A DNA stretch of 16,439 nucleotides from a virus (lineage: Duplodnaviria > Heunggongvirae > Uroviricota > Caudoviricetes), in IMG/VR virus record IMGVR_UViG_2657244940_000012; one strand, written 5' to 3'. Positions 12,001 through 13,786 of this stretch are shown here, in pieces. Position 1 is the first letter of the stretch. Every line of letters begins with the position of its first letter. A program made the position numbers.

Positions 12001-13786
12001 GCCCGATGAGGATATTCACGCCAGACCCGTTCGAACACGTCAGGATAATCAACCCGTCCCGCAGACGGTCCCGGTCTCTCCCGGGTTAACCCAATCGGCT
12101 TCCCGCTCATCGCGGAATCGGCTTCAGGCTGCTGCGGTTGGTGTTGTTGCTCCGGTTCGACGAGCAGCACCTGCTGCACACAACGACCGGAATCTGCTTC
12201 CGGTATCGTGCCAGCTGGTCCTGGTCGTTCAGTCAGAACAGGGCAAGAATCCCCCTGTGGGTCCGTGGCGATTTTTTCGCCATGGACCAGAAGGGTTTTA
12301 TCCCTTTCCTGTTCTTGTTCCTGTTCCTGTTCTTGGCTTGAAAGGGGCTCTGAAGGGGCTTCAATTTTCCGACATGACTCACGTCTGACATCCAGATGGA
12401 AATCATCCTTATATTTATCGTAAAATAATGATAAAAAAGGATTTTCCAGCAACGCGGAATATTCATTTCTTACCCCAGCACAACGGTTATCGCCAGGTTT
12501 CAGCGATTCACCAACCTGCCATGCTGCCATTTCATGCACCCATACAACCTCAGAATCATGGTCATAGCTGCAAAAACCAGCCTCGCAAGCCATTTGAAGC
12601 CCCTTAGAAGCCCCTTCAGGATCAAGTCCGGTTTCGTGAGCAATGTACAAAACAGGCAGGTAATAAAGGCCCAGCATATTGGAATGAGGCGAGGTCATCA
12701 TATACAACGCCACTACCATACATTCCGGACCAGACTTCCTTAGTTTTCTCCCTGTTTCGCCTAACCAGAACTGAGGTGAAATTGTTGCGTAATTACGCAT
12801 AGTCCCCTCGCATACAAGATTTACTCCATACCGCAGACGGTCCCGGTATCTCCCGGGTTAACCCAATCGGCTTCAGGCTGCTGCGGTTGGTGTGACTGCA
12901 CATTGGTGTGACTGCACATCTTCACAGACGGTCCCGGTATCTCCGGGTTAACCCAATCGGCTTCAGGCTGCTGCGGTTGGTGTTGTTGCTGGCGAAATTC
13001 TTCCAGATGTGGCAGAATTATTCCCGTGTATTGCTCCATGCCCTGCCTGAATATCAGATATTCATCAGGATTTGCTCAGAACGTCCGGCCCCAACCGGAC
13101 GTTTTTTATTTGCATGAACGTTAATGGCATGCTGGAAAGCCCGGCTGATCGGACTGATATCAGATGCCATCTGAAACGCGCATAAAATCGCCGCGATGTA
13201 TCGCCAGTCGGTACGACTGACCTTCGATTCATGACAGCCAATCATCTTCGCCAGTCCCCTTTGCGTCAGAGCTGACAGGTTGATAAGTAAATCCGTTTCA
13301 GCGCGATCGATATCGCGCTGTGACAGTTTGCTGTAACTTGTTTGTTCCATTTCTTAAGATTTCCAATAGTGAATAGCTAGTTGAAAGGTATGCGTGGAAA
13401 CGCATATGGCCTTAGTTGGTCAGATATCTTGGGGCTCGCTTTGTCAGCGACGTAGGACGAATGTCCATTGTGAAAATAGCGGTGTTACTTATGCAGTTGT
13501 TTTTTTGTTACTTGGGAAGGGCTTTATTTCTTCCGCATAAACGCTTCCATCAGCGTTTATAGTTAAAAAAATCTTTCGGCCTGCATGAATGGCCTTGTTA
13601 ATCGCGCTTTGATATACGCCGAGATCTTTAGCCGTCTTGGTTTGCCCAAAGCGTATTGCATAATCTTTCAGGGTTATGCGTTGTTCCATACAACCTCCTT
13701 AGTACAGGCAATCATTATCACCGCTAGAGGTACAATAGTCAACACGCACGGTGTTAGATATTTATCCCTTGCGGTGATAGATTTAA

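Follow-up and report, generated by a model that had tools for sequence, protein, structure and literature searches.

Introduction

In Bacillus phage SPP1 (G38P/oriL), a replisome-organiser-type initiator binds repeats located inside its own gene. The origin of phage lambda (ori) consists of four 18-bp iterons and an AT-rich tract inside gene O, and six iterons are present in the Stx phages 933W and P27 (PMC7466680). Lambdoid phages also display mosaic-joint scars, relaxed homologous recombination and modular exchange (De Paepe et al., 2014, PMC3945230).

The DNA analyzed in this work, hereafter the window, is a stretch of 16,439 nucleotides (IMG/VR record IMGVR_UViG_2657244940_000012) that corresponds to the early-right region of a lambdoid prophage, with the genes from cII to the helicase loader on the minus strand. 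A preliminary description reported three copies of a ~60-bp unit with a perfect palindrome around an O-like gene, interpreted them as iteron-type binding sites of the initiator and gave a scar of illegitimate recombination as the alternative.

As in lambda, the candidate origin of the window is located past cII on the pR transcript, inside the gene of the initiator itself, and the initiator has two domains and a linker, a layout into which the clusters of an 11-bp motif (GAAGGGGCTTC) and the AT-rich tract of the window fit (PMC7466680). In contrast with lambda, the long units measure 66-113 nt instead of 18-19 bp, are unphased and have no AT-rich neighbor; two of them are outside the initiator gene; the protein has no sequence relationship with lambda O and its loader is DnaC-like, not P-like; and the candidate iterons form two clusters ~245 bp apart in the part encoding the N-domain, not a single linker array. 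The resemblance to SPP1-type systems concerns a winged-helix-like N-domain, a helicase-loader partner and short repeats on either side of an AT-rich tract in the part encoding the N-terminus; it is a likeness of layout, the protein having the PHROG label 'DnaD-like helicase loader' and yet no match to the Pfam DnaD or replisome-organiser models. With lambdoid mosaic joints the locus shares the abutment of a lambda-type cII/oop segment on a Rac/YdaU-type replication module, a homology to other lineages that starts at the O-like ATG, and repeats that recombine and convert mutually; it differs from them in that the parental molecules were not found, the creating event is a reconstruction and a 64-nt spacer has no detectable source.

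Results

Organization of the locus and of the repeat units

The features of the locus are collected in Table 1. Beyond the loader gene there are DUF1627 and DUF977 genes and, farther on, NinB, RusA and Q. A region of 1.7 kb was 96-97% identical to Escherichia phage PhiR5_2, to phiSTEC1589-Stx1c and to the Shigella phages POCJ13 and 75/02 Stx, and an IMG/VR contig (L016) presented 100% protein-level identity to this region of the window. Homology with lambda covered the 3' end of cII and the oop-type terminator and faded ~35 nt past the cII stop; this lambda-like part is followed by the repeat units and then by the O-like ribosome-binding site. The O-like protein matched no Pfam family at E ≤ 0.01, and its best PHROG was 1701. 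The name 'O-like' is a positional and functional label only, as judged from a protein sequence that failed to match the lambda O family (Pfam Phage_rep_O and relatives).

Table 1. Coordinates of the genes, repeat units and candidate origin elements in the window.
Feature	Position	Strand	Remarks
cI	13790-14503	+	
cro	13689-13489	-	
cII	13350-13054	-	Pfam Phage_CII; upstream neighbor that marks the lineage with upstream units
72-aa ORF (ORF72)	13039-12821	-	phrog_2751, unknown function; contains units A and B
Repeat unit A	12990-12925	-	66 nt; first upstream copy; without the 23-nt segment; 1-nt deletion in G-run
16-nt tandem duplication, TTGGTGTGACTGCACA x2.1	12887-12919		forms the A/B junction
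Repeat unit B	12893-12826	-	68 nt; second upstream copy; ends 25 nt before the O-like start codon; without the 23-nt segment
O-like initiator (360 aa)	12800-11718	-	phrog_1701, 'DnaD-like helicase loader'; contains unit C
Candidate iteron cluster 1	12594-12617	-	GAAGGGGCTTC x2, 11-bp period; gene nt 184-207
AT-richest 40-mer of the O-like gene, candidate DNA-unwinding element	12409-12448		17.5% GC; between the clusters
Candidate iteron cluster 2	12341-12364	+	GAAGGGGCTTC x2, 11-bp period; inverted with respect to cluster 1
Repeat unit C	12150-12054	-	97 nt; inside the O-like gene, residues ~217-249
DnaC/IstB-like helicase loader	11711-10971	-	directly downstream of the O-like gene

The perfect 10-bp palindrome GGGTTAACCC occurred exactly three times in the window, always within the units (0.30 occurrences expected), and the chance expectation for an exact repeat of 41 nt was ~3e-17, so that the three palindrome-bearing copies initially reported are confirmed. 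Their positions, one in the O-like linker and two upstream, also held, with the refinement that A and B are within ORF72 and not intergenic. Units A and B aligned with 59 matches, no mismatches and one 1-nt indel in a G-run (CCCGGAG in A, CCCGGGAG in B); A and C shared 64 matches with 1 mismatch, and B and C 65 matches with 3 mismatches. Unit C contains 23 additional nt (12103-12125), on both sides of which stands the direct repeat GAAGCCGATT, a sequence that differs by two mismatches from the core of the 11-bp motif and at which the initiator may bind weakly. The start-to-start spacing of the units was 90 and 772 nt (113 nt in locus L008). The short tandem duplication described between two of the copies was found as well (Table 1).

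The claim that the same DNA is read in different frames was correct for the later part of A and B but not for the first ~33 nt of the unit (QQHQPQQPEAD), which have one common frame in A, B, and C. The frame of A and B diverges from that of C after these ~33 nt, at the 23-nt gap, because the 23-nt segment is missing, and the 1-nt deletion in A restores the frame of C (PGPS).

Distribution and copy number of the upstream units

More than 110 loci were gathered from phage records, complete E. coli genomes, IMG/VR, metagenomes and assemblies. All genes 92-100% identical to the O-like gene of the window were preceded by the start of ORF72, which abuts cII in the annotated loci of this group, and all presented one, two or three upstream units. 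Two copies were found in most loci of the group and a single one in L006, L009, L023, L025, L036, L080, L098, L101, L103, L104, and L108; L008 had three full upstream copies of 113 nt, each with the 23-nt segment, and the 16-nt tandem duplication at every inter-unit junction. The exact 72-aa product of the two-copy form was carried by at least 1000 contigs, and 445 contigs had the 42-aa product of the one-copy form. Two observations count against the explanation that we favor below: isolated plaque-forming relatives had two copies in four of four cases, and every intact-gene member of the cII-linked lineage retains at least one upstream copy.

No upstream copies were detected within 2.5 kb of the gene in ~45 E. 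coli loci at ~70% identity, nor in the Klebsiella loci L011-L013, the Serratia loci L014-L015 or the L095 type. In lineages without upstream units the O-like gene abuts YdaT-like or ClpX-zinc-finger genes, and the upstream homology between lineages starts exactly at the O-like ATG. The L095 type, which has a third N-domain, carried a near-identical linker unit, GGGTTAACCC included, and zero upstream copies. A homologous linker unit was found behind three N-domain types (that of the window, L095/P0118, and the Tritos type, the last with a degenerate palindrome), and in sister lineages the palindrome appeared in the degenerate form GGGTAGTCCC. A duplication of the gene's own linker upstream was seen in none of the independent lineages examined.

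Recombination and sequence variation among the copies

The one-copy forms were of two kinds, L104 with the A-type CCCGGAG and the rest with the B-type CCCGGGAG, and therefore exchange between A and B must have taken place at no fewer than two distinct points. Loci L007 and L099 corresponded to deletions between an upstream unit and C, with loss of the N-domain and everything in between; the deletion was out of frame in L007, annotated as a pseudogene, and in L099 it fused ORF72 in frame to the linker and C-domain. CCTGATGCC was common to all four L008 copies and CCTGAAGCC stood in its place in all window copies, the junction sequences being common to L008 and the window lineage. Gene conversion after an ancestral duplication appears the likeliest origin of these concerted differences between L008 and the window.

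The 253 nt that separate the cII stop from the O-like start displayed only four singleton polymorphisms in a set of 28 unique two-copy sequences, and cII, linker and N-domain of the same sequences were more variable than this region, with shared polymorphisms. Such a low polymorphism could reflect constraint at the DNA level; it could equally reflect a lineage-unique segment lacking a diverged partner from which to import variation. Compared with L008, the upstream region was 95-96% identical and its neighbors 95-98%, and it did not change visibly faster than coding DNA. It is mainly because of these two results, the low polymorphism and the identity to L008, that we keep a small but real share of probability for the cis-functional readings.

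The O-like protein and its linker

An AlphaFold model of the O-like protein, obtained with 17 homologues as input, presented a confident N-domain (residues ~7-95) with the order of helices and strands typical of a winged helix, and a confident helical C-domain (residues ~250-335). Residues 96-248 had pLDDT values <50 and form a predicted disordered linker, inside which falls the segment encoded by unit C. A fold search with this model gave only weak matches to winged-helix regulators (best E 0.025), which are consistent with a DNA-binding N-domain but assign no family.

According to the protein alignment, the whole linker segment is missing in 302-aa homologues from Klebsiella, Raoultella, Pluralibacter, and Lelliottia. 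With respect to L010, a ~70%-identical E. coli lineage, the DNA of the unit was ~80% similar, and a -1/+1 indel pair shifts the frame over ~14 codons (MSGKPIGLTRERPGPSA vs. IQREADRVVPENTGQSV); in Tritos-type proteins a slippage of 24 nt occurred between GAAGCCGATT repeats. The absence in the shorter homologues, the compensated frameshift and the slippage taken together indicated that the linker tolerates frameshifts and indels, and because of this tolerance, selection on the DNA itself cannot be deduced from its being read in more than one frame. From sequence comparison and model alike, the linker is predicted to be dispensable and unconstrained.

Coding capacity and other signals in the repeat region

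The C-terminal half of ORF72 depends on the number of copies, with a product of 72 aa for two copies and 42 aa for one. In L008 the frame is closed by a stop after 42 codons and the annotation has no CDS there, and direct reading of the first 28 codons of ORF72 against L008 gave five differences, all five nonsynonymous. The 1-nt deletion of unit A is also present in units 1 and 2 of L008, where the stop arises from it; since the same deletion creates a stop there, it was not selected for coding. By tblastn, the N-terminus of ORF72 was present only in the cII-linked lineage, and the possibility that it is the start of another initiator was rejected because the matches were confined to this lineage. 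ORF72 is thus probably not a conserved coding gene.

Folding of both strands and of single units was unremarkable (z from -0.13 to -2.05), and a search of the repeat region against Rfam returned nothing at E ≤ 1. No promoter or terminator was found inside the units, the sole terminator-like site nearby being the oop-type hairpin at 13078-13105; no convincing p_o-like promoter was recognized by eye, and no CII-type box (TTGC-N6-TTGC) was found in the units, the sole near-match in the vicinity being the pRE-like site in cII. None of the antisense ORFs that overlap the repeats (12908-13117+, 11975-12388+, and 12138-12341+) had a PHROG match. The spacer of 64 nt that separates cII from unit A had DNA matches in phage records only in six close relatives. 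Two possible sources for the spacer and the start of ORF72, descent from an O-like 5' end that decayed after a first duplication and homology with the extended N-termini of P0064 and P0096, were discarded, since in both cases local alignments scored no higher than shuffles. The GC content was 55-65% across and beside the units, and its minimum (28% per 60 nt) was located at 12400-12459, ~250 nt from C and ~370 nt from B.

Candidate origin in the N-domain coding region

The 11-bp motif clusters first surfaced in repeat searches of distant homologues. They are located at gene nt ~185 and ~445, in the same gene as unit C and 230-560 bp away from the long repeats. The motif of 11 nt is repeated with a period of 11 nt, in agreement with helical phasing, in 2 + 2 copies here and in up to 3 + 3 copies in relatives. 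With one mismatch at most, GAAGGGGCTTC was found at three sites in the 16.4-kb window, all of them in the O-like gene (~0.27 expected), and in 56 unique genes two fixed slots contained 243 motif matches vs. 43 in ~325 kb of flanking DNA. The AT-richest 40-mer was placed between the clusters in the window, L008, L011, and L014, though not in L010 and L044.

The clusters occupy conserved positions in E. coli, Klebsiella and Serratia alike, although their frame and orientation vary. Cluster 2 was direct in frames 2, 1, and 0 (L010 and L044) or in frames 1 and 0 (L011 and L014) and inverted in the window and L008; it lies in a predicted disordered region, and the peptides encoded are unrelated (IEAPSEPL, RGFEGALKGL, and EGASKGL). 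Since frames, orientations and peptides differ, cluster 2 is conserved as DNA and not as protein. In the L095/P0118 type (49% identical overall) the same two positions are occupied by GAAGCCTTT with a 12-bp period, again inverted, and at equivalent positions the Tritos type (unrelated N-domain, same C-domain) has GTCACG repeated every 10 bp, its two clusters being separated by 260 bp. The GAAGGGGCTTC clusters thus combine conservation at the DNA level with co-variation with the DNA-binding domain. The origin is most likely constituted by these clusters flanking the AT-rich tract in the N-domain coding region, and we infer that the N-domain binds to the 11-bp motifs. In the literature searched, the GAAGGGGCTTC motif was not found in a phage context; the Eru papers on replication regions of non-lambdoid Stx phages mention neither iterons, origins, POCJ13 nor DnaC, and those on 'oriJ' give no location at the level of sequence.

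Discussion

Origin of the upstream units

We consider it probable, with appreciable room for doubt, that the repeats are a recombination scar or segmental duplication whose upstream units are non-essential, and that the origin resides in the GAAGGGGCTTC clusters elsewhere in the O-like gene. A scar remodelling the 5' side of the O-like gene was the alternative offered in the preliminary description, and it is now favored by the variation in copy number, the recombinant deletions and the distribution of the units. A and B would be paralogous, non-essential duplicates of the linker DNA of unit C, which probably arose in a single event, as a YdaU/DnaC-type replication module became linked to a lambda-type cro-cII segment. 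This could have happened through an illegitimate join into the linker, after which the complete gene was restored; alternatively, 'leader + N-domain + linker' may have been duplicated in tandem and the first N-domain then deleted. Unequal exchange would then shift the upstream number among one, two and three, gene conversion would keep the upstream units similar to unit C, and exchange with unit C would delete the N-domain and the origin, giving rise to defective prophages. An upstream copy would persist because the homologous recombination that removes the last one also deletes the N-domain. The winged-helix N-domain would bind the 11-bp motifs and recruit DnaB via the C-domain and the DnaC-like loader. 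We infer both the way in which the duplication arose and the lack of function in the units.

That the three ~60-nt units are iteron-type sites of the O-like initiator, forming or extending the phage origin, seems to us most improbable. Such an interpretation is attractive for a repeat far beyond chance expectation, with one copy in the linker-coding region of the initiator as in lambda, and with a perfect 10-bp palindrome and a GAAGCCGATT two mismatches away from the 11-bp motif in each unit; the very low polymorphism of the upstream region in the two-copy group would also agree with it. However, of the four testable features of an iteron origin considered here, none was displayed by A, B, and C. 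Instead of a compact, helically phased array of ~17-22 bp repeats there are units of 66-97 nt (113 nt in L008), spaced 90 or 113 and then 772 nt; no AT-rich unwinding element or tract adjoins them, the GC content there being 55-58%; neither their number nor their position is conserved, with one to three upstream copies in near-identical modules and none in all other lineages of the initiator family; and the units do not co-vary with the initiator, a homologous one being found behind three different N-domains, for each of which a separate set of short-period repeats occurs at conserved positions. In addition, the palindrome is degenerate in sister lineages and homologues of 302 aa lack the segment altogether. 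The argument that reading in different frames points to selection on the DNA was undercut by a linker that is predicted to be disordered, is absent in those homologues and tolerates frameshifts, and the comparison with related prophages, proposed initially as a check, went against the ori-like reading. The upstream units might act instead as an auxiliary cis element outside the core origin, either as low-affinity sites for the initiator or a host factor that modulate origin firing, or as a spacer that tunes pR read-through or O-like translation. We regard this as unlikely: the presence of at least one copy in every intact member of the cII-linked lineage, the low diversity within the lineage and the location of the units on the pR transcript, immediately 5' of the O-like ribosome-binding site, speak for it, but a neutral segment would be expected to keep one copy too, a clean removal requiring illegitimate deletion, and the absence of any such element in the other lineages of the initiator family, the apparently free variation of dosage among one, two and three, and the failure to detect structure, promoter, terminator or known RNA family speak against it.

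A genuine small protein gene, for whose coding the repeats would be conserved, is very unlikely in our view. ORF72 is annotated in all records and forms a PHROG of its own (2751), direct reading places an AGG 6 nt upstream of its ATG, and its exact sequence is carried by at least 1000 contigs; against this, half of the product changes completely with copy number, L008 has the stop after 42 codons without an annotated CDS, the substitutions in the 28 common codons are all nonsynonymous, and the sequence is Q/P-rich, of low complexity and matches neither Pfam nor NCBIfam. Finally, the units could be a functional cis element specific to the lineage, either low-affinity sites for the initiator or a host factor, with an origin-titrating or 'handcuffing' effect, or a recombination switch that deletes the origin and the N-domain; we deem this highly improbable. 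If the switch existed, an L099-like fusion might sequester the DnaC-like loader or DnaB and immobilize the prophage.

Significance for the prophage family

Under the recombination scar that we favor, both components of the locus, a duplication at a mosaic joint and an origin within the initiator gene, are of known kinds and would not surprise a specialist in lambdoid phages. The long repeats are a source of instability, with copy-number variants and origin-less defective prophages, and they illustrate how a disordered, frameshift-tolerant linker can serve as a recombination substrate in phage mosaicism. The candidate origin at 12341-12617, with its natural co-variation of initiator and iterons, appears to be a well-supported and useful by-product: in the search for the origin of this widespread prophage family the 11-bp repeats are a testable candidate and the ~60-nt repeats the wrong place, and the change of motif with each N-domain type provides three natural specificity pairs. 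The family includes the Stx-converting Shigella and E. coli phages POCJ13, 75/02 Stx, and phiSTEC1589, and it is also found in E. coli O104:H4 genomes.

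Candidate Origin Within the O-Like Gene

The true origin is likely formed by two clusters of the 11-bp repeat GAAGGGGCTTC, inverted with respect to each other, together with the part of the O-like gene richest in AT, which lies between them. Cluster positions were kept across E. coli, Klebsiella, and Serratia homologues when the sequences were compared, and the repeat sequence of the clusters varied together with the type of N-domain.

Coordinates of the features located in the window
Feature	Position	Strand	Remark
GAAGGGGCTTC cluster	12594-12617		11-bp period
GAAGGGGCTTC cluster, inverted	12341-12364		11-bp period
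AT-richest stretch of O-like gene	12409-12448		Between both clusters
197-aa ORF with match to DnaD N-terminal domain	3953-4546	-	Pfam PF21984, E 7e-8
Q antiterminator gene	4681-5166
RelE-family toxin ORF	7530-7964	+	Pfam E 6.7e-46
ORF	7957-8277		After RelE-family toxin ORF
ORF	8288-8593		After RelE-family toxin ORF

In the IMG/VR locus L074, cluster 1 contained an extra, third 11-bp copy of GAAGGGGCTTC (gene nt 185-215), which caused a frameshift, so that the O-like ORF ended after 103 codons. Because of this frameshift and stop, a change in the number of candidate iterons can knock out the gene that carries them.

Natural deletions spanning from an upstream repeat unit, within the 72-aa ORF preceding the O-like gene (ORF72), to the unit in the linker-coding region (unit C) were found in a metagenome contig (L099) and in E. 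coli SW071611 (L007), and both removed the N-domain and the candidate origin. In L099, ORF72 was thereby fused in frame to the linker and the C-domain; the deletion in L007 was out of frame and the gene is annotated as a pseudogene.

Linker and C-Terminal Tail of the O-Like Protein

The linker starts with EQEQEQ, encoded by a run of 4.5 copies of the hexamer GAACAG (12306-12332), whose copy number varied between close relatives by indels of 6 or 12 nt (alignment A1). A compensated -1/+1 frameshift spanning about 14 linker codons distinguished the window lineage (12054-12125) from the ~70%-identical E. coli lineage (L010, 3191-3300); DNA similarity was around 80%, and the peptides were unrelated.

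The C-terminal tail, ISEPDTEIPPGFRG (11718-11792, residues ~337-360), weakly matched the corresponding tail of DnaT, a primosomal protein of E. coli (E 0.0019 in NCBIfam; E 0.04-0.25 for PDB 6aep, 2ru8, and 9zbt). This likeness may reflect a peptide, common to both proteins, that docks with the helicase or helicase loader.

Signals in the cII Region and Other Genes

An intrinsic-terminator hairpin, antisense to the cII 3' end and sharing homology with the terminator region of lambda oop, was located at 13078-13105 (+); no convincing p_o-like promoter was found, and the hairpin region had no match in Rfam. Within the cII 5' end, a leftward-pointing site, TTGCTGTAACTTGT (13328-13341, +), matched the CII box TTGC-N6-TTGC at all but one position; the corresponding place in lambda holds pRE.

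The window contained no tRNA genes. The ORF with the DnaD domain match adjoins the Q antiterminator gene on its downstream side, an unusual position for a domain of replication type. The RelE-family toxin ORF lies inside the nin-like region, on the opposite strand.
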